DNA of 63,116 bases, counting the filler, from Stramenopiles sp. TOSAG23-2 (Eukaryota), in the NCBI GenBank assembly GCA_900128395.1. It is 8 parts of 8 records of this genome, joined end to end, with 100 filler letters (N's around TTAATTAATTAA, not from the genome) between each part and the next. Parts side by side here need not be neighbours in the genome. Positions count along the whole stretch, not along the records: positions 35,113 to 46,689 come from LT649917.1; 7 more parts are not named here. One strand, written 5' to 3'. The notes beneath the pieces were generated by a model. It saw nothing but the letters and a program-made list of their open reading frames with translations. It did not search any database and was not told where the DNA came from. The translations under genes and the position numbers were made by a program. This document shows positions 8,601 to 61,633 of this stretch, piece after piece. Position 1 is the first letter of the stretch; every line of letters begins with the position of its first letter.

Positions 8601-11324
8601 GGTTACATGTGCCGCATGTCCTTCGTACGTTTTATAGGCGATTTCTGGATCAACCGCTGGGTAGCGAAACAATTTGACCCGGCTAAAATCGTCTGACGTA
8701 ACCAATAAATCCCCGGAAGTTGATCGGCATACAGAATTGATATCCGTGCCATCCGCGCCTGCTGGCCAAATGGCTTGAACAGGCCAACCAAGTGTGCATG
8801 TCCACGTGGCCCATTGCACATCTCGCATTTTAGTCGAGCTAGTAATTTGATTACCACCAACATCCCAGTAAAGTAATTCGTATGCGCCGCAATTACTTTG
8901 TAAATATTTGGAATCAATACTGAAATCCAAATGGGTAATATAGCTACTATGACCTTTACAAATTGCTCGTTTACTATACGTGTCTTTAATAGTATTGTAC
9001 AAGTATATCCTATTGTCATGGGAGCCAAATGCTAGTAATTTGCCATTTGGGGAATATTTAATTGTCCCACCCCACTTTTTCGCATCACCTTTAATAACTT
9101 TAAAGGCTTTCCATGCCGCGCGATCCCCAGCTGGAAGATTTGCTACGGAATGAGTCGTGTGGGCATTAGGGTCCGTATCCCCATCCAAAATTACAATCCA
9201 TCCGCCAGGTTTTTTAGGATCGTTCCCTGCATCTAATGCAACTGCTAGACGTTTCCCATCTGGGGAGAATGCACATGCTTTTGCCTTGTTTTTAAATGCG
9301 CGTACACCCCTTTGTCGTCGGTATTCGATATCCCATAGTCGTACGGTCCCATCATCACCACATGTAGCAAACCGATTTTTATGAGGATGTACTGCTAAGC
9401 CACAAACTTCGCCTTTAAAATGACTGCGCATCAGACGGTAGACGTATGTATCCTCTCCGCTGCCTTTCTCCTCGTTAGGCAGTTCGATGCATATAATTTC
9501 GCCAGCTCGTGTGCCGACTAAAATTGTATTTTCGCTTTTCGATGCACTGGTACCCATGCAAACGCTGTTGATGCGTGCATTCAAACTACCCATCTCCGTT
9601 CCGCCGATGGATTGTGGCTGACCAACGCATTGCATATTGGTATTCCAAACTTTTACAGTGGCATCTTGTCCACCAGTTAATATACCATCTTTCCACCAAT
9701 ACATTGCTGTTACAGCATTTCGTCCACCACCACCATGTGCTCGGGATATAACGTGTTTCACTTTATGCCCTTCGAATTGGTACAAGGATCCATCAGCACA
9801 TCCAACAACTAGATCATTGCCACAGAAACCCATACATGGATATGGTTGTATCTTTCCCTTCTTCCCGATAATACCACGTTTACAAGTCAATGCTTTGCCA
9901 TTTTTCGTGAAGAATTTAATGAATTTCATTCCACAAATGACCAGCGTTTTCCCATTGGGGGTATATTCACATGCTAAAACTTTGTTTTTGTCACCCTTAC
10001 CAGACGCAACTAAAATTTTTCGTCTCCAATCATATATTGCAATGGAATGATCATCATCCAATCCAATGGAGGCTAAACGATCCCCACGTTGATTAAACGT
10101 TAGTAAACTTACACCACGGCGATGGAACCCACTTAATTTAGCTTTCGTGTTAAAATCAGCAGTTTTTCCACCTCTGCTTAACGGATCCCAGACGTGTATT
10201 CCTGGATTTTTCCCGATTTGCCCAGTCGCTACCAAATCTAAATCTGGATGAATTGCCATGGATATAATATCATCAGTGTGTCCATGATAAAAACGTTGCG
10301 TATGTGTTTTACGATCATAGACAACACCTAATGCAGCAGCAAAATATACGATGTTTCCATCCTGGGTATAACGTAAATTATTTCGAGCTTGCTGTGCGGA
10401 AAATCCATGAACCCATTCCAACACTAAACTTGCATCTGGGACATCAACCGAAGTTCGAGGCAAATCCGTTGGTTCTTTAATTGTCCCAAGCCATGGTTTC
10501 ACTGCCATAAATTCATCTCCACCTGAGCCTTCGCCAGCCAACATTTTAATCAATTGCGTGTTGGCAACTTCTAATGCCTCCGACGCTTCCGTAGCTTGAA
10601 GCGCTCTTTCATGTACACCCAAATGTTCTTCATCTAGATCAGAATCATCCTCTGATGTTGCTTCCGGTGCACTCTCGTCGTCTGATTCTTCCCGTGTTGC
10701 ATTGACAAGAGCGCGGCTACTCATTTTTTCCAGTGCATTTAATACTTCTCTGGTTCCATTAGCCCACTCGGTAAACTGTGGGAAAGATAAAGCAGGTGTT
10801 TCATCTGGATCTAAACTGGAACTTTCTTTTGCAGAGTTCAATGCCAATTCCGCTAAACCTTCGAATTCTTCATCTTCTGGTACTTCACGTTCCCCCATAA
10901 ATTTCAACAATCCAACAACGCAAGATCTCATCATTAATACTAACTCTTCAAAACATAACGAACCATTAACGTTAAAATCAACAAGTTCAAAACAAAACCT
11001 ACTTTTGTCATCAAAACTACCTTTGCAACATTGTGCAACGGCAGCGATAAATTCCAGCGCATCGATACGACCATTACTATCTTCATCTAGCACAGCAAAT
11101 ACCTCCTCAAAACGTTGCACATCGGTTTTAAACGCTAGTAACGCTTCAAACTGCGATTTGACCAAACCATATCCAGTTGGATTTTTCAAAAAACGATGGT
11201 GTAACGTACGTACATCTTTAATAGTCCATGACGCAAATTGTCTGCAATAGGTTACTAATGGTCCCGTATTTTTATCTGCAGAGGATATTTTTTCATTCAA
11301 TATTCTCGAAGTTGATTTTCCCAT
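2628..11324 (-). CDS. EML6: EML5/EML6-like microtubule-associated protein: N-terminal EF-hands plus three HELP/WD40 (TAPE) units, 2898 aa, intronless
   Basis: Three HELP-like segments (LEWVHGF, LAWVHGY, LENIYGF), repeated HSSYITHLDFS and TCxLGWPVQxIW...DGTDIN signatures, and EF-hand loops DEDSNGRID and DFNVNGSLC. Confidence 0.9.
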   Translation of the reverse strand: MGKSTSRILNEKISSADKNTGPLVTYCRQFASWTIKDVRTLHHRFLKNPTGYGLVKSQFEALLAFKTDVQRFEEVFAVLDEDSNGRIDALEFIAAVAQCCKGSFDDKSRFCFELVDFNVNGSLCFEELVLMMRSCVVGLLKFMGEREVPEDEEFEGLAELALNSAKESSSLDPDETPALSFPQFTEWANGTREVLNALEKMSSRALVNATREESDDESAPEATSEDDSDLDEEHLGVHERALQATEASEALEVANTQLIKMLAGEGSGGDEFMAVKPWLGTIKEPTDLPRTSVDVPDASLVLEWVHGFSAQQARNNLRYTQDGNIVYFAAALGVVYDRKTHTQRFYHGHTDDIISMAIHPDLDLVATGQIGKNPGIHVWDPLSRGGKTADFNTKAKLSGFHRRGVSLLTFNQRGDRLASIGLDDDHSIAIYDWRRKILVASGKGDKNKVLACEYTPNGKTLVICGMKFIKFFTKNGKALTCKRGIIGKKGKIQPYPCMGFCGNDLVVGCADGSLYQFEGHKVKHVISRAHGGGGRNAVTAMYWWKDGILTGGQDATVKVWNTNMQCVGQPQSIGGTEMGSLNARINSVCMGTSASKSENTILVGTRAGEIICIELPNEEKGSGEDTYVYRLMRSHFKGEVCGLAVHPHKNRFATCGDDGTVRLWDIEYRRQRGVRAFKNKAKACAFSPDGKRLAVALDAGNDPKKPGGWIVILDGDTDPNAHTTHSVANLPAGDRAAWKAFKVIKGDAKKWGGTIKYSPNGKLLAFGSHDNRIYLYNTIKDTYSKRAICKGHSSYITHLDFSIDSKYLQSNCGAYELLYWDVGGNQITSSTKMRDVQWATWTCTLGWPVQAIWPAGADGTDINSVCRSTSGDLLVTSDDFSRVKLFRYPAVDPEIAYKTYEGHAAHVTNVRFAFGDRHVISTGGMDRCVFQWRCEYEEQEEIEIASADEDMHSDLENELGHDLTRTELQEAANEDGGHEDLAELFQQGGGDEFMAVKPWLGTISVMKPKSFDKKKVSTSAPDCDMELAWVHGYRAFDCRNNLRYTAKGDMVYPAAALGIVSNKREQRFFNLHTDDVISLAVHPQGKVVATGEIGRTPKIICWDNESLLAVTIIQGFHKRGVPLLAFSGGKGDKLVSVGLDNDFSIAIYAWQENHLIASCKSAKNKVLCVEFGIDDQTVITCGVNHVKFWTIKGSTLKCQKGIYGTIPTVISDELDQVEYGSRGGTTKKMRKKRSNGKKNLIQTALCIGSFKLSKPGDAKLESRYVTGMMDGALYIWNNYKLETVERAHVKANAKSAVTAMYSHNDAFFTGDKQGKIKIWEANRCYDLEQAAKEAKAYKKAKKEYNASKSKMLGQPNSKRIEMFQCKYRSILYKRPLVCLFTIDLEVGPSSHAWMFNSFDSARPKGPHVDGPIKSELRSLCYKDGKLLIGTKCSSVYEADCQPPRVKGQKTTEALKKEICENINKSIEKKVNEALNQKKGNTYDQLLGLSEELAGFEMWQDLDYYSKRLKNAFKKYQASGDLIDAGKGKKSDSIFQKDNAKDEKDKYHTSKSSPLPVTVVCQGHYVGELWGLSMHQKKPRFMTCGDDGTARLWDLKDRTCIRAVKLGIEGSQTVPLPACGKVLQVQNGSPKIEKVTATETGDGGENTEKKEEEKTEGNTQVNVEAKDAVDTVIYFSTVCTGFEYRRGTAEQSKQWEEMETDEAFAKAFNLTKSDGECISLNTLKICGKGVPENTYVKSIKIVDPPVPIKLPEGDDNAKTEDETKQGGETNDKTPSKCVQVTLNSHINLSKIKPKMWMTFNLDTKQSLATKGKARACAFSPPRMGNDSKGSSKVARVEMQEGHVAFGIDDGTVEIWNDGLRRFVERIDATKIQTGVSMEKDVIVEPKDRYKKGKHFPKEWIQDMKYSQKGNFLAVGSHDNKIYVYRRKGKKEWETETDNDNTKGGAEGRYELYCVCAKHSSYITHLDFSSGKEEEYKRQDPIWKKDVGDHKYDTNKSNEAERTRVYGGMHCYDEDLVKFERENKGTDDKREITQWYESFDSRYLMSTCGGYELLFWDLHPSNLVKKKGRGTPYFHAKHVTRVSTLKDITWNTFTMPLGWNVQGIWPPCADGTDINAVARSRNKKLCATADDFGRVKLFRWPCVSNKAQSKNYRGHASHVTNIFFSDKDEYVVSTGGSDNCIFLWKTDYDHQEQLKLEQSQQRNGDSSGSETEDSEDDDDEIDPFAEIGGGDEFMAVKPWLGAIVAPSKWQEGPEDADEPGKELVLENIYGFSAHRRDAAFYSSSPGEIVYFAAAAGVVNNFGKKGSRKKGEQQQHFNLAHTDDILCMAMHPAGNRVATGEIGRRPKIFVWDVHSTNVLLEIVGFHRFGIELLAWSPTGAMLATVGRDGDHSIAIYDGDSGSMVANSKGHQNKVQAICFKTEMDIVTAGVKHVKFWTMSERKISGKNGLFKPKGKIQTVLAVAALGANTVTGQKDGSLYLWQGRNCQDLRKGVHKGPILALVTLNVTMGNGVLSGGKDGKIFLWDRTLTPTLKFDMNSLDSIKGVVPKGPMDCAIHSLDARHSHILVGVKSAEIFHIPFDGCEDGSASVTRVVHGHFAGETWGLECHPDQCEFVTVGDDSTIRRWDSVHCRLLCVAKLECKARAVTYAPESGSQIAVGTTSGNVIIYDSNNLSKPLKKISVTKEWIEDLKYSKNGKILGVSSHDNRIYLFNRKTYNQYAVLKGHSSYITHIDFSYDEKTNECKWLQSNCGAYELLFWDTTTGKRNGKASALRDVKWGTWTCVLGWPVQGIWQAGQDGTDINAVDRSHSRDKPLLVTGDDSGKVSLFRYPCSNGNAVGRVSKGHSSHVTNVRFLHDDSNVISTGGGDRCVFQWKVIDAKNVRKANKRGKKGGKKKRGRRRRR

Positions 11325-11623
11325 GTTTCTCGATCTCTGCTCTCTATTTGTATATACCTATATATATATATTTATATATATATACATATACTTTTCAATT
11401 TCGATTGATATATAATGGTTGTTTTGTGTTTGTTACCCTGTCATCTCTCTTTTTATCAAATAAATATGTATAATAAATATATATCAAAACGATATATTTT
11501 TGATTCTTCTTAATGCTGTGTAGTGCTATTGGTTGAGTGCACGGTTTTGATTTTTTTACCTGATTTTTTAGATCTAACATATTTGAAAATATAAATAAGA
11601 ACACGAATTTGGTAAGTGTAGAT

Positions 11624-11723
11624 NNNNNNNNNNNNNNNNNNNNNNNNNNNNNNNNNNNNNNNNNNNNTTAATTAATTAANNNNNNNNNNNNNNNNNNNNN
11701 NNNNNNNNNNNNNNNNNNNNNNN
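11624..11723. other. Artificial contig linker
   Basis: 44 N + TTAATTAATTAA (stops in all six frames) + 44 N; identical at seven sites. Confidence 0.97.
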
Positions 11724-20143: not shown

Positions 20144-21013
20144 TTAATCAAAACATGTATTATTATTTATACAAAAATCTTTGTAATTTAATCCAATTGA
20201 TTGTGCTACTTCTGCAACTTGAATTGATGCAGTTGAACTTAATGTTGGTTTTCTTGCCAATACAAATGCAGTTGTATAATTTCCTTGCATTGTTGAACCA
20301 CATACGTATAGGAAAATAAATGGTTCTTTTTCTGCACTTGCATCTTTTACAACCATGTATGGTTCCATGTAATCCATTCCAAACATGGTACCAATATTAT
20401 ACAATGCACCAAAACCACCATCTGTTCGTATCGACATTTCACTAGTAACTGACATTAATGCAGGTTTATCATTTATATCTGGCATAGACCAATTACTTTG
20501 AAAATGCACGGCTGTATCATTATTATTGAAAAATCTTGCTCGTTGACATCCAAAGCATTCCAAAGGCTCGCCTAAACGCCATGCACGTACTTTGTACCAA
20601 ATGCCATTTAAATCTTTCATATTAAAATTTGGATCTCCTTTAATCTTTCCATTTGGCATAATACTTGACATTTCACATTTTGGATATCTAGTATCATTTC
20701 GTACAATAGGTGAACATTTATGTTCTTGGATGACACAGTGTAAGAAATTGTCACGTTTTTTATTATCAGGTGTCATACATTTATATGGATATAATGGATC
20801 AGTTGGTTTTAACGTTCCCATACAAGGTCCCATTTTTTCCAAATTAGCTGCACATACAGAATCTTTCAAACATTCAAATAAAGGTGATAAACAATTTCTA
20901 ACTACGCATGTTGAAGTACATACAGGTTGTAACCATTTTGGGCATTGAAGCCCATATGTTTGTGAGGAGATGGATAATAATAATACCAAAAACTTAATTA
21001 ATTTCATCATCAT
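20144..21013 (-). CDS. Violaxanthin de-epoxidase-like (VDE-family) lipocalin with signal peptide
   Basis: Cys-rich domain CVVRNC...ECLKDSVCAANL and lipocalin SCR1 NFNMKDLNGIWY. Also CFGCQ, GALYN and FIFLYVCG...Y..AFV, in the same order as in plant VDE. Confidence 0.7.
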   Translation of the reverse strand: MMMKLIKFLVLLLSISSQTYGLQCPKWLQPVCTSTCVVRNCLSPLFECLKDSVCAANLEKMGPCMGTLKPTDPLYPYKCMTPDNKKRDNFLHCVIQEHKCSPIVRNDTRYPKCEMSSIMPNGKIKGDPNFNMKDLNGIWYKVRAWRLGEPLECFGCQRARFFNNNDTAVHFQSNWSMPDINDKPALMSVTSEMSIRTDGGFGALYNIGTMFGMDYMEPYMVVKDASAEKEPFIFLYVCGSTMQGNYTTAFVLARKPTLSSTASIQVAEVAQSIGLNYKDFCINNNTCFD

Positions 21014-21561
21014 TATTAAAATTTCTAATATTTCTTTATTATTTCTAATATAATTTAATTAATTTTTGTATACTACTATAATACAAATATTTCCAATAGT
21101 TTCAAAATAGAAAATATCATACAATATTACATTCGAAGTAAACAAACTGAGATTATAATCATTTTTTTTGTAAAAGGTTATTCATTTTTTTCATTTTTCA
21201 ACTTGAATTTTTGTATGTATTTTTTAATTTTTTGTGGTAGTGCAACAACTCCAAGTTTAAGTGTGTTTTAGTTTCGAATTTAAGGAAATTGGAATATCGT
21301 TTCTTCCCTTGGTGGAAAATCTTTGTCTAATACCTTAACCTTTGTCTAATTTTAAATTTAAATTACATGAGTATACCAGGTATTCTAATTCATATAGGAA
21401 AAGATTATACTAAACACTACATTTATCAACAACCCCCACATGATCCCACATGTTTATAAAAATACAGCTCTCTATCTCCCCCAAGAGATAAGTAAAATGT
21501 AAGGTGATGAAAGTGTGCAGGAGGATTTCAAATAGTTGTATCCACTATATATATATAAAAC

Positions 21562-23331: not shown

Positions 23332-23431
23332 NNNNNNNNNNNNNNNNNNNNNNNNNNNNNNNNNNNNNNNNNNNNTTAATTAATTAANNNNNNNNNNNNN
23401 NNNNNNNNNNNNNNNNNNNNNNNNNNNNNNN
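23332..23431. other. Artificial contig linker
   Basis: 44N-TTAATTAATTAA-44N. Confidence 0.97.
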
Positions 23432-27107: not shown

Positions 27108-30100
27108 TCAACAACCCCTATTGCCACCACGCCTCGAAGCCTTTGCCAACAACCGGCGACGGCTTGTCTCTGGCAACCCCGAATGCTTGATATTGTACGA
27201 GACATACTCTCCATCCCCAACAAGCATTAACGATCCCTTCGACGTCTTAAACACCATCGTCTCCGTTCTTGATCCCGTGCGGGTCAAACATGCGCACAGA
27301 GAGGGAGATGCCTCGCATGAAAAACGAAGCTTCCCGTTCGATGCCGTGACGCCATGAAAAAGGTCTTTTGCATCGCCAATGTCGAAGCATGTGCCAGTTG
27401 CTTTCGCTTTCCACGCTTCCAACTCACCAGACAAATCAAACGAATCACTCTCCGATACCTCCAACAAGCTTGTGCCACTGGTTTGTGAATTCTTCACGTC
27501 ACCCTCGTTCACGTCGTGACCAATTTTTAATGTATTTGTACGGGTTGGACTCGTATATTGTGTACCTTCCAAGATAAAATTGTACAATTCAAACTCAAAC
27601 ACGTTGCCAGTAAGCGTCATTTTGAACGACAGGGGTTGGTCTACCCAGTGGTGGTTTAGCTCGGTCAACGAACAGCCATTTTTACGACATTCGAAATAAT
27701 CTTTCGTATCTTGACAGCATTGATGCTTGTCGGAATACATTTGCAAACCAACTTCGGTTCGAGGCAAGTAGTTTCTATTGGCACACTTATCGTTAATTTC
27801 ATGTTTCAAATACGGAGATTCTTTGTCCAGCTGTGCAATCATCACCCATTCGCCGTTGAGATGTTGTAGTGACACGTCGTTCCCTTTGAACAGTGGTGAG
27901 GTGCACTTGTCGGTGACACGGAATTTAGCGGTGGATGCCAACGCACGCTTGAAAGCAGCATCACGTCCGATATCCTTGTCTAAGAAAATCATGGCCATGT
28001 TGACGACAGTTGGATTTGCCAAATCTAAGTTGTACTCGGTGCAAAACTCGTCTTGCATTTGNNNNNNNNNNNNNNNNNNNNNNNNNNNNNNNNNNNNNNN
28101 NNNNNNNNNNNNNNNNNNNNNNNNNNNNNNNNNNNNNNNNNNNNNNNNNNNNNNNNNNNNNNNNNNNNNNNNNNNNNNNNNNNNNNNNNNNNNNNNNNNN
28201 NNNNNNNNNNNNNNNNNNNNNNNNNNNNNNNNNNNNNNNNNNNNNNNNNNNNNNNNNNNNNNNNNNNNNNNNNNNNNNNNNNNNNNNNNNNNNNNNNNNN
28301 NNNNNNNNNNNNNNNNNNNNNNNNNNNNNNNNNNNNNNNNNNNNNNNNNNNNNNNNNNNNNNNNNNNNNNNNNNNNNNNNNNNNNNNNNNNNNNNNNNNN
28401 NNNNNNNNNNNNNNNNNNNNNNNNNNNNNNNNNNNNNNNNNNNNNNNNNNNNNNNNNNNNNNNNNNNNNNNNNNNNNNNNNNNNNNNNNNNNNNNNNNNN
28501 NNNNNNNNNNNNNNNNNNNNNNNNNNNNNNNNNNNNNNNNNNNNNNNNNNNNNNNNNNNNNNNNNNNNNNNNNNNNNNNNNNNNNNNNNNNNNNNNNNNN
28601 NNNNNNNNNNNNNNNNNNNNNNNNNNNNNNNNNNNNNNNNNNNNNNNNNNNNNNNNNNNNNNNNNNNNNNNNNNNNNNNNNNNNNNNNNNNNNNNNNNNN
28701 NNNNNNNNNNNNNNNNNNNNNNNNNNNNNNNNNNNNNNNNNNNNNNNNNNNNNNNNNNNNNNNNNNNNNNNNNNNNNNNNNNNNNNNNNNNNNNNNNNNN
28801 NNNNNNNNNNNNNNNNNNNNNNNNNNNNNNNNNNNNNNNNNNNNNNNNNNNNNNNNNNNNNNNNNNNNNNNNNNNNNNNNNNNNNNNNNNNNNNNNNNNN
28901 NNNNNNNNNNNNNNNNNNNNNNNNNNNNNNNNNNNNNNNNNAGAAAATCATGGCCATGTTGACAACAGTTGGATTTGCCAAATCTAAGTTGTACTCGGTG
29001 CAAAACTCGTCTTGCATTTGTGTTAATGTTTTTTGGTTGCGAAACTTGATCGACTTGTCTAGGTGTGGGCAGGTTTGATGCTCCAACTTAGCAATTTTGG
29101 ATTCTAGTTTGGAGTTTTGTAATTTTACCTGACTCTTCATTTGGGTATTCAGTTTCGATTCTAGTTTGGAGTTTTGTGCTTTTAGTTGGTTATTTTGGCT
29201 ATTGATTTTTGATTCTAGCTTTGAGTTTTGTGCATTTAGTTTTGATTCTAGTTTGGAGTTTTGATTCGTCATAAACGTATGTACATTTTCCTCAACCTTA
29301 GTTTCCACATTCTTCAACATGGAACCATCAACTACACCAGCGGCCCCGGTCGCACCTCTTTCACCGTCAACACCGCGTGGCGCATGAAATTCAACCCAGT
29401 TCCCTGATTTCAAATCTAGATATGGCAACTTTGTTGCAACAAATTGTTTTTTCTCTGCTACGTACATGGAATCATGGTTGTCCTTGCTTGATTTTGAAAA
29501 AACATAATCACCATGATGATACGTTTCTCCAGTTATAAACTGTTTTAATGTTAAACCAGTACCGTCATTACCACGTTCTCCTTTTAGGCCTTGAGCACCA
29601 CGTTCCCCTTTTACACCTTGAGCACCAGCCTCGCCGTTTATCCCTGTTGCTCCACGTTCACCTTTCGGTCCACTTTTCCCTTCTCTACCTTTTTCGCCAC
29701 GTTCACCTTTTTGTCCCACCATCGAACCTTTTGCTTTTTCCACCATTTTGTTGACATATTCAATCATATCCACGTGGTGCTCCACTTTTATTCCAGCGAC
29801 ATGACTTAACACAGATGACGTGCAAATATCTTGGGGGCCATCCACTGCCGCGGACAAGCTTTCTTTACTACCAACATGTGCTCCTTGCTCGTGCAAACGA
29901 CTATACAACGTCACTTTACAATCTTTTGGAACACGTATACCTTTCAACCCATTCACACGCACAACGGATTTTGATGGTTTGTATACATTACTTGACCGTG
30001 TATGAAAATCACAAGTGTCGTACGTCTCTACTCCAGCACACAGTGGCACATCGTTCCATAGCAAACGCCGTCTTCTTTGTTGTTTCTCTGTCATCGCACT

Positions 30101-35012: not shown

Positions 35013-35112
35013 NNNNNNNNNNNNNNNNNNNNNNNNNNNNNNNNNNNNNNNNNNNNTTAATTAATTAANNNNNNNNNNNNNNNNNNNNNNNNNNNNNNNN
35101 NNNNNNNNNNNN
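35013..35112. other. Artificial contig linker
   Basis: 44N-TTAATTAATTAA-44N. Confidence 0.97.
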
Positions 35113-35879
35113 ATCTTTTATCTGAGTGCCTGATTTTGCATTCTTTCAAATTTTATTATCTTTTTTTGTTCCTGAATACATTATACATTATATATACACA
35201 TCTTGGAGGCCGTTTTAGTTTTATGTCTAATCTCTAAACTCTAAAAAACAAAAAGAATTCTTTTTGCTCTAAGGCGTAGAGTACACGCGAAGTTTCGTTT
35301 GCAAAGACCCTTAAAGTTTGCGAAGTCTGTATGGTAATGCCATTATAATAAAACCTTATTTTCTCCAGTTTTTTAATCAATTTTTGCACATTATTTTAGT
35401 CTATAGTAAACAGTGTTATTTTATTTTTCAAACCGGTTTTAAAACCGGTTTGTAATTTTAGTCCTTTTTTCAGTGCTATTTACATAGTAGCCAATTTGAG
35501 ACCGTGTCTGTGTACGGAAGGCCTAAATTGGAGCAGCAGCACAGCACGCCCTATATAAAACGATTTAATTAATAACACTACCAAAACGTTCTTAACATAG
35601 AAATAGCAGGCAATGCATCATCAACTTAAATCGAACAGAATGGAACAGGCATGGGCTGGTATTATTTTACAATATTGATAAACACTTAAACCACATGTAT
35701 TAGTATCATCAATAATCACGTACATATATAAATATGTTGATACATAATAGAGTTTTATAAATATTATGAAACGATAGAAAAGTTCCGAATTACCTCTATT
35801 ATTGATAAGTATAGACCAAACTATATAAAATAGATAAATTTTCGTATTATACTTATTATTTTGATAATTTTTTTTCCTA

Positions 35880-38800
35880 ATGACTTCATCAAAAAATCAA
35901 AAAATGGAGAAAGATGCGAAAGTATTATTTGCTGTACAAATGGTATATAATCATCCTTGTAAACTTTTGACTTTTTCATTTCTAATAGCCATCACTTGTT
36001 CCGTATTGTCTTTAGGCTACATAGATTTAGCAAATCCGAGAGCAGGTTTGAGACTACGAGACCATATTACAGCAGAACGCAGTGATGCATGGTTATTAGC
36101 CATGTTTGAACTAAGGGATCAATATAAGGAAATTCCACGACGTCATTCAGAGAGGACGCAAGTTTTTTCTCCTCTAGAGCTTACGTATGCTGCCGACTGG
36201 TGGGAAGCTGATACATCAAATGATAATCCAAACCAAGTTAGTCTGGGCAACAAAAATGTTTTAACTGTTGAAAATATACAAAGAATTGCAAAGTTTGAGG
36301 ATAGTATTTTATTAGATGAAGAATACGAGAAATATTGTTTAATAGAGAAAGGGAAAAGCACGTGCGCACCAGTCAGAAGTGTTATTCCATATTTAAGAGA
36401 CGCAAAGACGCAAGGTATGTAATATTTACTTATTATTGCCATAAAGAACATTTGCTACCCAGTCTCTACACTATACATCTCTCGTCTCACCTTGCTTCAG
36501 CCCATAGTCAGAAAATTTTAAGCAAGCACTTGCTAACATATCAACTTTATATATATACGTATTTTTTTTCTTTCTATTGTACTGATAGCGGAGCTGGATA
36601 AAGCAATAGTAGATTTCAAAACCAAATATGCGAATAAAAACGAGAATCCATTTTCACAGGATGCAAGTTGGTTTTTTGAATACGAAGATACTAAAGAACT
36701 CCAATTAGAACTAAAGAATAAAACAACCAGCTATGCCATTAGAAGTCAAATTAGATTTGGTATGCCATATGCAACATATTTAAATGAAGATGATAGAAGA
36801 AATGAACAAATCAAGTTGCATTATAAACCATACCTAAGATCCTTAGAAAAGAAAGCATTGGATTTCCATACCGAGTTAAAGAAGGAATACGATGGGAAAA
36901 AATGGGATAGAACAAAAGAATCGAACTTGCAAGTATTTTATATTTTGTCAGAAACGTTTTGGGATGTAGTTATTGGCATTTTGTTTTCCGATTTCAGCTG
37001 TATTATCGGTAGTATCATCATGGTGCTAATTATATTGATAGCACATACACGTTCATTATTTCTAGGAGTAATGGGATTGATACAAGTATTATTCTCCTTT
37101 CCAGTATGCTTCTTCTTCTACCGTTTAGTGTTTGGAATTAAATTATTTGGCGTCTTACAAATAATTAGTATGTTTATCATTTTGGGCATAGGTGCTGATG
37201 ATGTATTTATAATAAGCGACGCGTTGCATCAAAGTAAAATTGTTGCAGAATGCCAAGGCAATAAATTAAAACGCTTAAATTTTGCTGTAACACGAGCAGT
37301 TGAAACTATGTTAACGACAAGCCTTACGGGTGCATTAGCATTTGGCAGCACAATGGTATCTGTTATTCCAGCAATTAGATATTTTGGTGTTTTTACAAGT
37401 ACCTTGGTGTTAGTTAATTTTGCTCTTTGCTGTACGTTTTATCTATCTAGTTTAACCATATGGTTGCATTATATGGAAGATAAATCATACAGAAAATTTT
37501 GGAAACTTGGTACTACCACAACTAGTAGTAATTCAAATACCGATGACAGTCGCCCTAACAGCGACAACGAAGTAGAAATGACCGTACAAAATCCTCAGTT
37601 ACGCAAAGGTATCACGGCAGGGGGGAACGATGCACTTGCACCCACGATTCTAACCGATGATGCTCAAAAATCACAAAAGAAACAAAGACGCGGTACTCGA
37701 CGAAAGAAACGAAGGGCATCTTTAGTATCTTCAGAAAATTTAAGAACAATATCTGATCGCCCGATTGAATTAGTATTTCACGATTATATCGCGCCATTTA
37801 TTGTAAGGTTTTGGAAAATCATTCTCGTGATATCAGGTATTCTTTTCATTAGCATGACTATTGCATCAAGCTTCATAAAAGTGGAGGAAGAACAGGTTTA
37901 TTTTCAAAAAAATCATAGAATAGAACGCAAATTTTCTATTGATCAAAGTACATTTTCAGCAAAAAAATCTGCCAGTTCACGGTTTCGCGTAGTTTGGGGG
38001 ATTAATGATGAAAATCCAATAGATAGGACAGGAACTGATGAAACTGATCAATGGGATTTAGGAACGATTAATTATTTCGCAAACTTTGATTTTAGCGACG
38101 AAAAATCACAATTGGCCATATTTAATCTTTGTAAGGATATGAATAAGAACGCATTGAAATTAGGCATTAAAAGGCGTGATTATAATGAAGAAATTGCTGA
38201 TATTGAATGCTTCATGTCTGGATTTAAGAATTGGAGAATCGGTAGAAATGTTAGCTTCCCAGCTCCTAAATCTGAGTTTGTGGAAGAGTTGAGCGAGTTC
38301 ATGAGGAGACCGGTGGGGAGTAAATATGGAGGACAAGTTGGTTTTCTTACAAAACAGAAGAAGGTATCTATAAAATTTGCATGGATTGAAGCAAGATCAC
38401 TATATAACCAAAACGATGATATCACGTTGAAGCAGAAGGTAATGAATGAATGGTATACGTTTTTAAAAAATCATAAATCTACCACTCTAGGATCACCATA
38501 CGTTACGGGTGGTGACTTTGATATTTTTGGCTTGTAAGTAAAATTCCATCGCGCCCATATATTCTTGTTCAACCCTATCTCTACTATGATGAAATATATA
38601 TTTCTGTTGTTCATCAAATATAACTAACATGTATGTATATTTCTATATCCAAACCTTTCAGCTTTATGTACACCGTATCCCAACTTTTATTTGTCAGTGG
38701 TGCTATATGGTCAATCGTTATCAGTAGCTCTTTTGCATTTTTAATGGTATTGTTGTTTACAAAGAATATTCGCGTGGCGTTGTTTTCTTTGATGACAATT

Positions 38801-40693
38801 GCTATGATCGTCGTCGGTGTAATTGGGTGTAATGTCCTGCTTGGAGGCACATTAGGTTCAGCTCGTTCGGTTTGCATTACTATCCTAGTTGGATTTTCAG
38901 TTGATTACACGGTTCATCTTGCAGTGGCATATGTGCACAGTAAAAAAAGTACGACACCAGAGCGTGTGATTGATGCATTATCAGCAATGGGTGTTTCAGT
39001 GACTGCTGCCGCAGTTTCGACATTTACATCATCATTGTTTTTATTTGCAGCTACACTCGCATTCTTTTTACAATTTGGAATTTTTATGGCTTTAGCCGTT
39101 GCATGGGCATATTTGTGTGGAACTTTTGTGTTTATGTCTCTTCTATGTGGATTTGGCCCATTGCCAGAAACTAATTACAGCGATTTAAAGCGTTGTTTTG
39201 GTAATACCAAGAAACAAATGGATACCGGAGATAAAGGCTTAAACAATGGCATGAATGTAGCCACTAGCAATGATATATCACTTGAAACCAATAAAACGCA
39301 AAAAGTAAGCAAAAAGATAGAAGTTCGTTTAACATCCTGCTTGTGCGTTGGATTGGTATTGGCATTATTTATAATGATTTCTGTATTTTACAGCATTGAA
39401 AGTGGAAAGAGAGTGGAAGATGAAGATATAGAATTAAAAACCGATGAAAGTTATTATATACCAGAATCTATCACATCTTTAAAAGTAAATGAATGGACAG
39501 AAATAAGACCAAAAGGCAACACTAAGTGTGCTCGTGGTACGCCTTTTGCCTTCTTTGTGAAGCGAGGGAAATCTTTAGATAAAGTTATTGTTGAATTCAT
39601 GGGCGGTGGAGCATGTTGGTCGAAAGAAACGTGTGGTTTACAAACAGCTATTTTCTCTGAAACAGCGGAATCAGCAAGGCAAATGTTTCGAGATTTACCA
39701 CCTTCTGTTGCCGTAGATGGCAAAGAAAATAAAACAGGTGAATCTGAATATCTATTTCCCTATCGTGGATTTGTAGAAAAAGGTTCAGTATTTGAAGATT
39801 ATACTCACATATTTGTTCCATATTGCACTGGTGACTTACATTGGGGAAACAATGCTATTCAATACACTAAGGATTTAAAAATCTACCATTACGGTGGTGT
39901 TAACGCAAATAGTGCGATGGAATTTTTATACAATCGTTTCCCAGCACCTCCAAAATCTATTTTTGTCACTGGTTGCTCAGCAGGGGCATATGGTAGCATG
40001 GTATGGGCTGCTAAAATTATGAAACATTATGAGGCAATTTCGTCCAATACAGCAGTCGTACAATTTGGTGATAGCGGTATGGGTGTTATTGCGGGAAATC
40101 TTGGGTTGACTTTGCTTTACAATGTTACAAAGTATTTCCCATTTGAAATATTACCGCATAATAATCTGAACAATACCAATAATTATACCTATGATATAAA
40201 TGCCGTTGCAACTGGTGATTTTGGATCTTTAACGATGCCGATGTTATATGAATTTGCAGCTTTACGATATCCTGATCAAAAGTTTAGCCAATTTAGTACA
40301 GCATATGATTGGAACCAAGCATTTTTCCTAAAAGCGATGATAAGTGGAGGCGCAGCAACATTACAAGACAAATATATTTGGAATAGTCAAATGCAAATGC
40401 TATATAGCCCAAACAGTACTTTATCAAACGTCAATAATTATTACGAATTTCTCGCTGAAGGGGATTATCATTGCGTCATTTGGACCAATCGATATTGGGA
40501 TACATATGGTTATGATAAGAAAACAAATAATCTACAAAACAAGATCTATCTAAATAAATGGATTGAAAATTTATTGTTAAGTACTACAAGTCCAAGCAAC
40601 TCTGTCGGTTGCATTAAAGAAGCTTGTAAAATCGAATTAGATGTATTAAGTATTGAAGAAAAAGAGTCGTTGCCAAGTAATTTCTTTGATTGA
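35880..40693 (+). CDS. Dispatched/Patched-family RND (sterol-sensing domain) transporter fused to a C-terminal Notum/pectin-acetylesterase-family hydrolase; exons 35880-36414, 36589-38533, 38662-40693 (~1503 aa)
   Basis: Two phase-compatible GT-AG introns join three ORFs into 4512 nt. RND motifs are GIGADD (TM4) and GFSVDY (TM10). After an extra TM come GGGACW, FVPYCTGDLHWG, VTGCSAGAYGS, AYDWNQ and GDYHC. Confidence 0.85.
36415..36588 (+). other. Spliceosomal intron (174 nt, phase 1)
   Basis: GTATGT donor, CTAAC at 36533-36537, TAG acceptor; restores frame into the 36762 ORF. Confidence 0.8.
38534..38661 (+). other. Spliceosomal intron (128 nt, phase 2)
   Basis: GTAAGT donor, CTAAC at 38624-38628, TTTCAG acceptor; TT+C keeps the frame. 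Confidence 0.85.
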
Positions 40694-41200
40694 GACTCTT
40701 TATATCAAAAAGAAAAAACACGTTTTAAAAAATATATGTATACGATAGAGAGGATTCTGTTACTTTATTCTGATGTCGGAAAGAGTCTGACGACGCAGAC
40801 TAATTCTGATGTGTATATGCTAATAAATACCTTATATATTGAAGATAAGTGGAAGCTTATACACTTCTAATTTATACCACAAGTATACTCTTTAGTGACA
40901 ATATTGTGCTATTTGCTATACCTGGTAATTAAAGATTTTTTTTACATAGATTAAGGGAAGAAGATTATTGTTCGAAGAACGCACGAACGGAGACGAATTC
41001 ACATTTGTAGTAAAATAATAATATATCTAAATACTAATAATTGAAATGGTAAATGTTAGTTACAATATCCCATCGTCTATACTGACACTGTTTTCCTATT
41101 ACCCTTCTCTGGACACCATACATCTTCCAGGTCCAAATCTACGTTTTCCCAGGAAGACCTACTAATATCCCGTCCACCATTCATTAATAATAAACAAAAA

Positions 41201-43579
41201 ATGGATGATAAAAGATATATCGCACCATCAACTATTGTCCAAAGTGATACAAATGAGAATGAATCATATTCGATACCACAAATTGCAACGTTAATTGAAC
41301 AACGACAAAAATTCCGTTCAACTCAAGAATGGGAAGAAGCCGATAATATACGAACACAGCTGGAAAATATGGGTTTTTCTGTCCAGGACTCGTGTAGTGG
41401 TGTCACCTCTTTAGGAAAACAGGAGACGAAAAAGTATGTAGATAGTAAAAAAGGGGATATCGGTGCTGATATTCGTCGTTTAACTAAGAAAAGAAATTTC
41501 TTACAATTGAAACATCTGTTGGAAACATCAGAGGAATATCGCAACAAAATAAACGACGGGAATATTAATGATAAGACTGCGTTGCATATAGCATGTCAAT
41601 GGTGTAGTACTGAAATGGTTGAATTATTAATTCAATATGGAGCGGATGTAAATAAGTTGGCAAGTAGAGGCCAATCGCCATTATGTTTTGCAATTTCCAA
41701 AAAGCGCTATTCTACTGTAAAATATTTACTTGAAAAATGTAAAGCAAGCTGTAAATTAAAAACTGTCTTGCTGGAAACTCCGGCAACTATGGCAAAACTT
41801 ACATGCCATGATCGTCAAGATATTGTTAATATGGTTATAGCAAGGGAAAAAGAAGAAGATGAACAAGGTGTTGAATGGATTGATTATACTAATAATGAAA
41901 AAGCAATTAAATTTCAAGTACAACATGCTATAAATTGTAAAAATTGCCAAGCAAAAATTTTAATTGCCAGAAGAAATTGTAAGGAAGATTGTATTAGTGA
42001 AAAATCATCGGAGACGACATTGCCATGGATTATCGACTATGAAAAATATCGATTAAAAGAGGAAGAAAAGATGAGACAATATGAAAGAAGAAAAGAAGAA
42101 AATAAGAAAACGGAAAATATCGAAGCACAAAAATTGTCATTGATAAGGAACAAATCATTGAATGATTGGCTTCATGATACTTTCACCAGCAATAATACTA
42201 ATAATGTTGATAGTAGTAGTAATAAAACATTTTTTGACGATAGTATAATCAGAAAAGCATTAGTCTATAGAATGAGTTTGACTGGTAAAGCTGTTGGACG
42301 AAATCAAAAAAAAGCATATCAAAATTTACAACATGAATTTGATACCGTTTTTCAGTCCAATAATTTGAACGACAAAAAGAGGAATAATATTTTATTATGT
42401 GAAATGTTGCAATCTTTGAATAATATCTCTTCCATTCAAGAAACAATAATCGCGGTAAATGAGTTAGATAATAAACTCAATGCTTGCACCTCAGTAAGAG
42501 CTGCAAGAAAATTACAGCGTAATATTTTGAAATTGATTATGAATTACTATTCCAATGATGATTTAAATTCAAAATCACAAGTCTTGAAATATTTAGAAGA
42601 AATTTACTTGCCTCGTTTTTCTCCTGAATATAAGAAGATAATAGAAAAATATATTCAAAAAGATAAAAATAAAAATAGTACTAGTAACAACAATAATAAT
42701 AAGTTGAAGCAATTGGGTAATTGTGAGGAGAAGACGAGCAGCAATAATACCCCTTACCTCACATGGTTACATTTATTCCCATCTTTGTCAAAAACATATA
42801 AAGAGATACCTTTACCAAAGCAATATACACGCAAATTTGAAGGAATACACCCGACGATCACTAATTTTTTAGATTTAAGACTTATTTATGATAATAATAA
42901 TGAGAATAAATTAGATGATATGGTGAATAATACTACTAATAATAATCATATTGCACCTAATAATGCAACAGCTGTTGCCATTAATAATGTATTTTGGATC
43001 AATACTCTTGAAAGAATGGAATGGATGGAGCATTATTTTAAAAAATTACATGATACAATACTGAATAATAATTTTATTCATGTTGGTGTTGATTCAGAAT
43101 TTAGTAATTCTCGTAAAGATGGTTGTGCTGTAATTCAAATTGCAGTTAATAATATTGTATTTTGCATCGATACTTTTAAGATTTCAGAAAAGCTCTATTT
43201 GAAAGAAATACAGTTTTTAAAATATTTATTTGAAACGAAAGTATTTTTAAAGATTGTATTTGCATTTCGAAATGATTGGAAAGAACTATATAAATTTTCG
43301 AAGGAAATGATAGCTAAAGATAATTGCAAATCATTTGTTGATATACAAGATGTAATGATGAATGTGAAATTATTCAATGATTTAATTGAAATTGATAATA
43401 AAAATCAACCTGGATTAAGTGACGTTGTTAAAATATTTTTGAAGTATCCATTGGATAAACGGGAGCAATGTAGTAATTGGGAAACACGGCCATTATCGCG
43501 TCTTCAAATGATATATGCAGCAATTGATGCAGTTGTATTGTTGGATGTTTTTCATGCAATGTATTTAATGTACGTATGA
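41201..43579 (+). CDS. DEDDy 3'-5' exonuclease (Mut-7/EXD3-like) with an N-terminal CysRS-anticodon-like helical domain and ankyrin repeats
   Basis: LIEQRQKFRSTQEWEEADNIRTQLENMGFSVQD; ankyrin TALHIACQW...LLIQYGADVN; exonuclease VGVDSEF, GLSDVV and LDKREQCSNWETRPLSRLQMIYAAIDA. Confidence 0.82.
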   Translation: MDDKRYIAPSTIVQSDTNENESYSIPQIATLIEQRQKFRSTQEWEEADNIRTQLENMGFSVQDSCSGVTSLGKQETKKYVDSKKGDIGADIRRLTKKRNFLQLKHLLETSEEYRNKINDGNINDKTALHIACQWCSTEMVELLIQYGADVNKLASRGQSPLCFAISKKRYSTVKYLLEKCKASCKLKTVLLETPATMAKLTCHDRQDIVNMVIAREKEEDEQGVEWIDYTNNEKAIKFQVQHAINCKNCQAKILIARRNCKEDCISEKSSETTLPWIIDYEKYRLKEEEKMRQYERRKEENKKTENIEAQKLSLIRNKSLNDWLHDTFTSNNTNNVDSSSNKTFFDDSIIRKALVYRMSLTGKAVGRNQKKAYQNLQHEFDTVFQSNNLNDKKRNNILLCEMLQSLNNISSIQETIIAVNELDNKLNACTSVRAARKLQRNILKLIMNYYSNDDLNSKSQVLKYLEEIYLPRFSPEYKKIIEKYIQKDKNKNSTSNNNNNKLKQLGNCEEKTSSNNTPYLTWLHLFPSLSKTYKEIPLPKQYTRKFEGIHPTITNFLDLRLIYDNNNENKLDDMVNNTTNNNHIAPNNATAVAINNVFWINTLERMEWMEHYFKKLHDTILNNNFIHVGVDSEFSNSRKDGCAVIQIAVNNIVFCIDTFKISEKLYLKEIQFLKYLFETKVFLKIVFAFRNDWKELYKFSKEMIAKDNCKSFVDIQDVMMNVKLFNDLIEIDNKNQPGLSDVVKIFLKYPLDKREQCSNWETRPLSRLQMIYAAIDAVVLLDVFHAMYLMYV

Positions 43580-43629: not shown

Positions 43630-44369
43630 NNNNNNNNNNNNNNNNNNNNNNNNNNNNNNNNNNNNNNNNNNNNNNNNNNNNNNNNNNNNNNNNNNNNNNN
43701 NNNNNNNNNNNNNNNNNNNNNNNNNNNNNNNNNNNNNNNNNNNNNNNNNNNNNNNNNNNNNNNNNNNNNNNNNNNNNNNNNNNNNNNNNNNNNNNNNNNN
43801 NNNNNNNNNNNNNNNNNNNNNNNNNNNNNNNNNNNNNNNNNNNNNNNNNNNNNNNNNNNNNNNNNNNNNNNNNNNNNNNNNNNNNNNNNNNNNNNNNNNN
43901 NNNNNNNNNNNNNNNNNNNNNNNNNNNNNNNNNNNNNNNNNNNNNNNNNNNNNNNNNNNNNNNNNNNNNNNNNNNNNNNNNNNNNNNNNNNNNNNNNNNN
44001 NNNNNNNNNNNNNNNNNNNNNNNNNNNNNNNNNNNNNNNNNNNNNNNNNNNNNNNNNNNNNNNNNNNNNNNNNNNNNNNNNNNNNNNNNNNNNNNNNNNN
44101 NNNNNNNNNNNNNNNNNNNNNNNNNNNNNNNNNNNNNNNNNNNNNNNNNNNNNNNNNNNNNNNNNNNNNNNNNNNNNNNNNNNNNNNNNNNNNNNNNNNN
44201 NNNNNNNNNNNNNNNNNNNNNNNNNNNNNNNNNNNNNNNNNNNNNNNNNNNNNNNNNNNNNNNNNNNNNNNNNNNNNNNNNNNNNNNNNNNNNNNNNNNN
44301 NNNNNNNNNNNNNNNNNNNNNNNNNNNNNNNNNNNNNNNNNNNNNNNNNNNNNNNNNNNNNNNNNNNNN
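43630..44369. other. Scaffold gap (740 N)
   Basis: N run. Confidence 0.95.
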
Positions 44370-46689: not shown

Positions 46690-46789
46690 NNNNNNNNNNN
46701 NNNNNNNNNNNNNNNNNNNNNNNNNNNNNNNNNTTAATTAATTAANNNNNNNNNNNNNNNNNNNNNNNNNNNNNNNNNNNNNNNNNNNN
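46690..46789. other. Artificial contig linker
   Basis: 44N-TTAATTAATTAA-44N. Confidence 0.97.
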
Positions 46790-58365: not shown

Positions 58366-58465
58366 NNNNNNNNNNNNNNNNNNNNNNNNNNNNNNNNNNN
58401 NNNNNNNNNTTAATTAATTAANNNNNNNNNNNNNNNNNNNNNNNNNNNNNNNNNNNNNNNNNNNN
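58366..58465. other. Artificial contig linker
   Basis: 44N-TTAATTAATTAA-44N. Confidence 0.97.
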
Positions 58466-59949: not shown

Positions 59950-60049
59950 NNNNNNNNNNNNNNNNNNNNNNNNNNNNNNNNNNNNNNNNNNNNTTAATTA
60001 ATTAANNNNNNNNNNNNNNNNNNNNNNNNNNNNNNNNNNNNNNNNNNNN
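59950..60049. other. Artificial contig linker
   Basis: 44N-TTAATTAATTAA-44N. Confidence 0.97.
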
Positions 60050-61533: not shown

Positions 61534-61633
61534 NNNNNNNNNNNNNNNNNNNNNNNNNNNNNNNNNNNNNNNNNNNNTTAATTAATTAANNNNNNNNNNN
61601 NNNNNNNNNNNNNNNNNNNNNNNNNNNNNNNNN
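61534..61633. other. Artificial contig linker
   Basis: 44N-TTAATTAATTAA-44N. Confidence 0.97.

Follow-up and report, generated by a model that had tools for sequence, protein, structure and literature searches.

A Dispatched-type RND transporter with a tethered PAE/Notum-family esterase predicted in a single chain of an uncultured marine protist

In animals, DISP1 is an RND transporter that releases lipid-modified Hedgehog and needs SCUBE2 and furin cleavage of its ectodomain 1 to do so, and Dispatched and Notum are separate proteins, both handling lipid-modified morphogens. Transporters and hydrolases are also known to act in sequence as separate polypeptides, such as lysosomal acid lipase with NPC1 and MmpL3 with antigen 85, and the AT3-SGNH O-acetyltransferases are single-chain fusions. 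Here we describe a gene of Stramenopiles sp. TOSAG23-2 (GenBank assembly GCA_900128395.1), located on the plus strand at positions 35880-40693 of a stretch of 63,116 nucleotides (hereafter the window), in the part that comes from record LT649917.1. Its product is almost certainly a single chain made of an RND transporter with a sterol-sensing domain, an additional thirteenth transmembrane (TM) helix and an esterase of the PAE/Notum family (CE13 type), as an earlier note on this DNA, made from the sequence alone, had proposed.

A scan of the window for open reading frames (ORFs) returned three on the plus strand, at 35868-36422, 36537-38537 and 38624-40693, which the earlier note had joined across two canonical introns into one frame of about 1503 amino acids (aa). 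This model was borne out by the ORFs themselves, by the GT-AG sites and by RNA contigs. The coding sequence joined from the ATG at 35880 is 4512 nucleotides (nt) long and encodes 1503 aa, with a lone stop, the TGA at 40691-40693. Both introns carry a CTAAC branch-like site about 35-55 nt upstream of the acceptor, and the gene is free of runs of N, the nearest being those at 35013-35056 and 35069-35112. The features of the gene and of its product are the following:

35880-36414, plus strand, exon 1, phase 1 at its 3' end; TM1 and the first part of exoplasmic domain 1
35967-36023, plus strand, TM1, from hydropathy
36415-36588, plus strand, intron 1, 174 nt, GTATGT...AG, with the CTAAC branch-like site at 36533; spliced out in 4/4 RNA runs
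36589-38533, plus strand, exon 2; rest of exoplasmic domain 1, TM2-6, cytoplasmic loop, TM7 and most of exoplasmic domain 2
36978-37460, plus strand, predicted sterol-sensing domain, TM2-TM6 (aa 309-469); PF12349 1.4e-13, PF02460 1.3e-9, Dispatched-1 2.5e-19
37185-37202, plus strand, TM4 motif GIGADD (aa 378-383, with Asp382 and Asp383); DD in all 19 rows covering it
37461-37817, plus strand, basic cytoplasmic loop preceding TM7
37818-37874, plus strand, TM7 (aa 589-607), from hydropathy
38534-38661, plus strand, intron 2, 128 nt, GTAAGT...AG, with CTAAC at 38624; spliced out in 4/4 RNA runs
38662-40693, plus strand, exon 3; a single continuous frame with TM8-12, linker, TM13, esterase and the TGA stop
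38702-39163, plus strand, TM8-TM12 (aa 841-994); Dispatched-1 4.6e-19 over aa 12-166 of the exon 3 product
38891-38908, plus strand, TM10 motif GFSVDY (aa 904-909, with Asp908); Asp in all 19 rows covering it
39164-39340, plus strand, Lys/Arg-rich linker (aa 995-1053), read as cytoplasmic
39341-39397, plus strand, TM13 (aa 1054-1072); mean hydropathy 2.62, the highest in the protein
39398-40690, plus strand, predicted PAE/Notum-family alpha/beta-hydrolase (aa 1073-1503), by PF03283 and structure model
39602-39619, plus strand, esterase motif GGGACW
39818-39835, plus strand, esterase motif PYCTGD
39977-39979, plus strand, Ser1266 (GCSAG), candidate nucleophile
40070-40072, plus strand, Asp1297 (GDSGMG), invariant in the 70-row alignment
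40307-40309, plus strand, Asp1376 (AYDWNQ), candidate triad acid
40469-40471, plus strand, His1430 (YHC), candidate triad histidine

The stretch was present in 20 of 24 listed sequencing runs, from 13 studies, mostly marine metagenomes together with six metatranscriptomes; the RNA evidence comes from the four of these six RNA runs that were examined, belonging to four studies, two of them polyA-selected. In contigs of all four metatranscriptome runs both introns were removed exactly at the predicted GT..AG joints. Contig X16 record 4 (3341 nt) joins 37401-38533 to 38662-40758, running from before TM7 through the whole esterase into the 3' untranslated region (UTR), contig X18 record 10 spans 38417-39500, and contig X15 record 1 has all three exons joined; in two of the RNA runs the RND part, TM13 and the esterase follow one another on one contig. 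The check proposed earlier, RNA coverage of both introns and of the junction between transporter and esterase, gave spliced contigs in four runs out of four and no break. The gene is real, spliced and expressed, and its host is an uncultured marine protist. The RNA contigs of X15 and X16 match the window up to 40758 and continue with a different sequence, which may mean that the 3' UTR varies among strains or that another 3' end is used. Among the runs there are also three small, possibly amplified, assemblies that may be the source of the window.

The start of the frame was, instead, revised. In the three RNA runs covering the site (X15, X16 and X19), position 35882 is A rather than G, turning ATG into ATA, and 7 nt are deleted at 35892, so that the start at 35880 given in the earlier note is lost in all of them. 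For this reason we moved the start to the ATG at 35904-35906 (Met9), which agrees with the N-terminus of the homologue P0002 in the alignment and is probably the true start rather than the polymorphic ATG at 35880. More generally, the strain represented in the window departs from the common environmental alleles at 35880-35906.

The transporter half was recognised by Pfam in the exon 2 product, with Sterol-sensing (PF12349) at 51.5 bits (cut-off 22.3; E 1.4e-13) and Patched (PF02460) at 38.4 bits (cut-off 23; E 1.3e-9). The hydropathy scan gave the order TM1, a loop of ~260 aa, TM2-6, a basic cytoplasmic loop, TM7, a loop of ~230 aa and TM8-12, that is two 1+5 repeats with a large exoplasmic loop after the first helix of each, the second repeat aligning with TM8-12 of DISP1. 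For both TM halves the best match among solved structures was Dispatched-1, at 2.5e-19 for TM2-6 and 4.6e-19 for TM8-12, followed by NPC1 (1e-7 and 2e-5 for the first and second half, respectively) and PTCH1 (1e-5 and 2e-6). The ectodomains had no sequence match among solved structures, and the NCBIfam scan of the RND part returned HAE3, NPC1 and Patched models, all below threshold. Among the matches found for this half, the nearest unfused ones share 23-26% identity with it and are annotated as Dispatched-like; they come from Mytilus, Saccostrea and the diatom Seminavis.

GIGADD and GFSVDY conform to the GxxxDD (TM4) and GxxxD (TM10) patterns of acidic ion-coupling residues within the membrane that mark the eukaryotic sterol-sensing branch of the RND superfamily. 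In the alignment, the DD pair of GIGADD and the Asp of GFSVDY fall on the positions at which the DISP1 structures PDB 7rph and 7rpj differ, and these three intramembrane aspartates are kept in every covering row of the 20-row family alignment. The DISP1 residues concerned, D571, D572 and D1049, coordinate three Na+ and are needed for Hedgehog release (bioRxiv 10.1101/2020.09.05.284026). The Pfam and Dispatched-1 matches confirm, at the level of sequence, the full RND/sterol-sensing transporter of the earlier note, and the half can be assigned to the Dispatched type with a sterol-sensing domain; since the three Na+-binding aspartates of DISP1 are retained, its core would most likely be an ion-gradient-driven mover of a membrane lipid or of a lipid-anchored molecule. 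Judged by the E-values over the TM helices, this half may be closer to Dispatched than to Patched and NPC1.

In exon 3 the frame continues beyond TM12 through the basic linker into TM13, found at 39341-39397 where an extra helix had been anticipated at ~39330-39400; hydropathy counted 13 hydrophobic segments in the whole protein. A single hydrophobic segment at the place of TM13 was recovered by script in 18 of 20 family members, and by inspection in the other two (P0001 and P0004). Moreover, of the two flanks of TM13 the N-terminal one has the more positive net charge in 18/19 members, the sole miss being a mis-picked helix. RND proteins have a cytoplasmic end after TM12, and because a 13th helix follows this end, the esterase would be located on the exoplasmic side; the 13 segments and the charge bias thus support the earlier suggestion that it faces the outside or the lumen together with the RND loops. 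The esterase domain has eight cysteines, four of which are invariant in the 70-row alignment, and five N-x-S/T sites, both of which fit an exoplasmic domain.

The assignment of the C-terminal part to the PAE/Notum family held in the Pfam check of the exon 3 product, which gave PAE (PF03283) at 56.8 bits, above the cut-off of 26.6 (E 2.6e-15). The match is confined to positions 22-187 of the 355 in the profile, the esterase being too divergent in sequence for this model over its C-terminal half. The domain was modelled by AlphaFold2 from a 70-sequence alignment of fused and stand-alone relatives, with pLDDT 89.1 and pTM 0.91. The top 50 PDB matches of the model in Foldseek were all Notum, at E about 1e-13, and VIA-align over model residues 31-415 gave Z 30.7 for Drosophila Notum (317 residues, root-mean-square deviation 3.3) and 29.3 for human Notum, with all other hydrolases at 13.0 or less. 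At the sequence level a profile of the family matches Notum at 6e-17, and the sequence comparison with Notum itself gives E 0.003; the NCBIfam scan of the esterase returned only a chance-level, sub-threshold match to PHA-depolymerase.

In the model, strands b5, b7 and b8 are followed by Ser1266 (at the nucleophile elbow), Asp1376 and His1430, respectively, which are the canonical positions, and the motifs GCSAG, AYDWNQ and YHC correspond to GCSxG, NxayDxxQ and HCQ of plant PAEs and Notum. These are the triad motifs of plant PAEs, in which the Asp/Gln pair is equated with Asp340/Gln343 of Notum (PMC5465549). The three residues are at least 90% conserved across the 70 fused and stand-alone relatives, and 16 of 20 fused proteins retain the complete triad. 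The model therefore places the candidate triad of the earlier note on the right strands and in the right motifs, and every motif that it listed lies where it was placed (GIGADD at 37185, GFSVDY at 38891, GGGACW at 39602), with PYCTGD at 39818, as do the residues of the triad, the GCSAG serine at 39977, the YDWNQ aspartate at 40307 and the GDYHC histidine at 40469. On the basis of this model, Ser1266, Asp1376 and His1430 are predicted to form the esterase triad, and we are fairly confident that the window protein has an active exoplasmic esterase. Asp1297 of GDSGMG was considered as the catalytic acid on account of its invariance in the 70-row alignment and rejected, because it ends b6, whereas Asp1376 follows b7 in the DxxQ motif of Notum Asp340; it is probably structural, and the GDSGMG-type motif is conserved in Notum too.

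The same combination was found in other organisms. Searching longer proteins with the exon 3 product gave 17 matches, 15 of which have Sterol-sensing/Patched and PAE parts in the same order (1268-2357 aa, 33-53% identity). All five more distant long proteins found via the esterase domain have the same architecture, the six best matches of the RND-half search are all fused, and a domain scan of 169 database proteins found at least 24 with both parts. The fusion of the dinoflagellate Durusdinium trenchii is automatically named 'Protein dispatched homolog 1' and that of the labyrinthulid Hondaea fermentalgiana 'Pectin acetylesterase 3'. The window gene itself is represented by P0210 (686 aa, 100% identical, window 38633-40690), a cluster of 128 member sequences which is exon 3 alone, starts inside intron 2 and is annotated with PF03283 only. 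The fusion is hidden in public data because gene callers split the gene and automatic names cover one half.

An esterase tree of 135 rows, built by FastTree and with weak basal support, placed 22 of 23 RND-linked domains in one group (SH-like support 87), with P0097 elsewhere; P0017, described below, had been excluded by the length filter. A single origin of the fusion is compatible with this tree. Three 'stand-alone' rows inside the fused group, for example P0020 on a contig of 1586 nt, are probably gene fragments. In four of the 20 fused proteins (P0079, P0120, P0131 and P0149) the nucleophile Ser is replaced, with GTDTG, GTGSG, GTGAG and GTQYG, respectively, in the place of GCSAG; DxxQ has also lost its Q and HC its C, and TM13, the Asp, the His and the RND aspartates are kept. 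From its sequences this branch looks like a pseudo-esterase ectodomain, in which no classical catalysis would be expected.

A search of 1.84 billion cluster representatives gave 2576 relatives of the esterase domain with an E of 1e-3 or better, most of which stand alone and are 350-450 aa long. Of the 120 best near-length matches listed, 14 name an organism; all 14 are bacteria, 13 of them Myxococcota, with E between 1e-57 and 1e-48 and identities of 31-35%. The term 'Notum-like' of the earlier note thus stands for family and fold and fails for orthology: the bacterial members of the family are much closer than Notum with its E of 0.003, and the window esterase is therefore no NOTUM orthologue. 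Other partners were also observed in the esterase clade. P0017 (1758 aa, from a metagenome) is an ABCA-type ABC transporter (ABC2_membrane_3 + ABC_tran) with the esterase at residues ~499-882 in its large exoplasmic loop; judging from its domains, the esterase family has here been joined a second time, independently, to a class of lipid transporters. In P0137 the domain follows AT3 (Acyl_transf_3), in P0044 it occurs with a C39 peptidase and a YdjC-like domain, and in P0069 it follows an M1 peptidase; the AT3 and YdjC partners point towards glycan acetyl chemistry.

No description of the fusion was found in the full-text literature, whose coverage stops short of supplementary tables and subscription journals. 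In particular, the main texts of papers on Phytophthora proteins with sterol-sensing domains (PMC12223298), on Halocafeteria NPC1-like proteins (PMC5447177) and on the Aurantiochytrium proteome (PMC12221091) contain neither an acetylesterase nor the fusion. The earlier statement that no example of this architecture had been described agrees with the literature, and needs to be narrowed in that the architecture is already in public protein sets and is not unique. The parts are known families and the fused proteins are in databases under one-sided names; it is their combination that appears undescribed.

The explanation to which we incline, by a modest degree, is that an RND lipid mover hands its substrate over to a tethered esterase, and we infer topology, activity, substrate class, direction and coupling of the halves accordingly from sequence and model. 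The RND core would lift an ester-bearing lipid from the outer leaflet via its ectodomains, and the tethered esterase would then cleave the ester; the candidate substrates are acyl esters, steryl esters included, acylated glycolipids and lipid-modified proteins. The two steps might also run the other way round, so that the esterase would free a sterol or lipid and the RND core would insert it into the membrane, just as lysosomal lipase and NPC1 act, in a cleave-then-insert order. In either order the protein would be a one-chain transport-and-deacylate machine. Functional coupling of the two halves, taken as a claim on its own, is held tentatively, at somewhat under an even chance.

Several observations weigh against this explanation. 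The topology is derived from hydropathy and charge bias alone, and cooperation, substrate and transport direction are all matters of inference. The stand-alone proteins closest to the esterase are bacterial 'pectin acetylesterase-family hydrolases', known as such by name only, and plant members of the PAE family act on acetylated polysaccharide, so that homology does not imply a lipid substrate. Partners unrelated to lipid transport also occur in fusions of the esterase clade (M1 peptidase, C39 with YdjC-like, AT3). Moreover, the four of 20 fused proteins that have lost the nucleophile Ser have kept the fusion, and catalysis is therefore not what holds it together everywhere. Predicted complexes of the P0001 ectodomains with the esterase scored 0.30, 0.32 and 0.25 against a mark of 0.34, which weighs neither way on docking.

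Other explanations have been taken into account. An artefact, either a chimeric assembly or a gene model that mis-joins two genes, might be suspected because the window derives from small, possibly amplified, assemblies and public gene callers split the gene, P0210 being the exon 3 ORF only. But the junction is covered by spliced RNA contigs of independent studies, which excludes a chimeric assembly for practical purposes, a single exon without interruption holds TM8-12, TM13 and the esterase, which makes the fusion independent of the gene model, and 15 full-length homologues of other organisms have the same order of parts; the chance of an artefact is negligible. On the other hand, the two halves could be independent modules, a cell-surface O-acetyl or glycan esterase being merely anchored and delivered by an unrelated transporter. 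Pectin acetylesterases define the family, and every triad motif of the plant type (PMC5465549) is present; glycan-acetylation-type partners occur (Acyl_transf_3 in P0137 and YdjC-like in P0044), and the nearest relatives that stand alone are bacterial enzymes of the secreted type, about 370 aa long. Nevertheless, a 12-TM ion-coupled transporter would be an unusually costly anchor, and its ion-site aspartates are kept in every fused protein; the six RND halves most similar to that of the window are all fused, and an ABCA-type lipid transporter, P0017, has the same domain in its ectodomain. We consider independent modules unlikely, while still a competitor to be reckoned with.

The losses of Ser, Q and C in P0079, P0120, P0131 and P0149, where the fusion, TM13 and the RND aspartates persist, are what would be expected if the PAE domain were mainly a non-catalytic ectodomain that binds ligand or lipid, as acceptor or donor for the cargo, with hydrolysis secondary or absent. 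The window protein and 15 others, instead, keep Ser, Asp, His and GGG(A)CW unchanged, and the 70 relatives conserve the three triad residues to at least 90%; a binding role as the main function is, for the family including the window protein, quite improbable. A further variant is a release machine for lipid-anchored proteins, in which the core would extract the sterol or acyl anchor from the outer leaflet, the esterase would cut the ester and the protein would be shed. Hog/Hint autoprocessing domains in animals attach sterol via an ester bond, and we know of no Hedgehog ligand in such organisms. Hog-domain proteins are widespread in protists (PMC2362128). We regard this variant as very improbable; if true, it would be a working link between 'Dispatched' and 'Notum' in unicellular eukaryotes, predating animal Hedgehog and Wnt signalling. 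The hand-over of a lipid substrate from the RND core to the tethered esterase is thus the overall explanation that we prefer.

The window is eukaryotic, AT-rich and gene-dense. Three further frames could be assigned:

2631-11357, minus strand, EML-type multi-propeller ORF of 2909 aa, with repeated double beta-propellers and HELP motifs; unusually long for the family
20147-21058, minus strand, violaxanthin de-epoxidase lipocalin ORF (PF07137, 1.9e-32)
41060-43576, plus strand, ankyrin repeats with a 3'-5' exonuclease (PF01612), Mut-7/WRN-exonuclease-like, directly downstream of the fusion gene

Other genes of the window encode a PPR protein, an RCC1/collagen-repeat protein and a fragment of dynein heavy chain. 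The violaxanthin de-epoxidase-type gene suggests that the host is photosynthetic or alga-derived, probably an alga and perhaps a mixotrophic flagellate. The idea, put forward in the earlier note, that the protein acts on prey-derived esters in a food vacuole did not gain support, as this gene points to an alga, which may be mixotrophic. The window also contains seven pairs of runs of 44 N, the members of each pair lying 12 bases apart (11624-11723, 23332-23431, 35013-35112, 46690-46789, 58366-58465, 59950-60049 and 61534-61633), and two long N runs at 28062-28941 (880 nt) and 43630-44369 (740 nt). The paired runs resemble masking or scaffold gaps, and ORFs and low GC across N runs are artefacts.

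Two families are joined here in one chain that is conserved in many protist sequences and expressed in the ocean, and their fusion is a hint that one and the same molecule can be acted on both by an RND lipid mover and by a PAE-family deacylase. This bears on the role of Dispatched-like transporters outside animals, on the function of the large part of the PAE family that belongs neither to plants nor to animals, and on the processing of sterol or acyl esters at the surface or in the lysosomes of marine protists. In practical terms, split gene calls and names that describe one half only make such an architecture easy to overlook.

Compared with the known systems, the transporter half resembles DISP1 in the 1+5/1+5 layout of TM helices, in the two large exoplasmic loops and in the three Na+-site aspartates of TM4 and TM10; the likeness is confined to the TM helices, with no sequence match in the ectodomains. 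DISP1 differs in having neither a 13th TM helix nor a C-terminal esterase, both present in the window protein. That DISP1 undergoes cleavage by furin is stated in PMC8630017. The esterase half resembles NOTUM in belonging to PF03283, in its fold (Z 30.7/29.3) and in its catalytic residues, the window Ser aligning with the Ser of GSSAG in Notum and the Asp lying in DxxQ. It differs in sequence, with 13-17% identity and a similarity detectable over the N-terminal half only, and in its tethering to a transporter via TM13, NOTUM being soluble and secreted. All three catalytic motifs of plant PAEs (CAZy CE13) are recognisable in the window esterase; plant PAEs are soluble cell-wall enzymes, unlike the tethered domain of the window, and none was found among the 120 best listed stand-alone matches of the latter. 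Pectin, to our knowledge, is not a component of these protists. The closest named stand-alone proteins are myxobacterial 'pectin acetylesterase-family hydrolases' (Sorangium, Sandaracinus and others), which cover 84-95% of the domain, consist of this one domain in about 365-390 aa, lack a transporter part and are known by name only. Finally, the likeness to the pairs of transporter and hydrolase, such as lysosomal acid lipase with NPC1, suggests a mechanism by analogy rather than being evidence for it; these pairs and the AT3-SGNH fusions share with the window protein the same logic, an acyl-ester enzyme of alpha/beta or SGNH type on the outer face beside a carrier of membrane lipid or acyl groups, with hydrolases of unrelated families.

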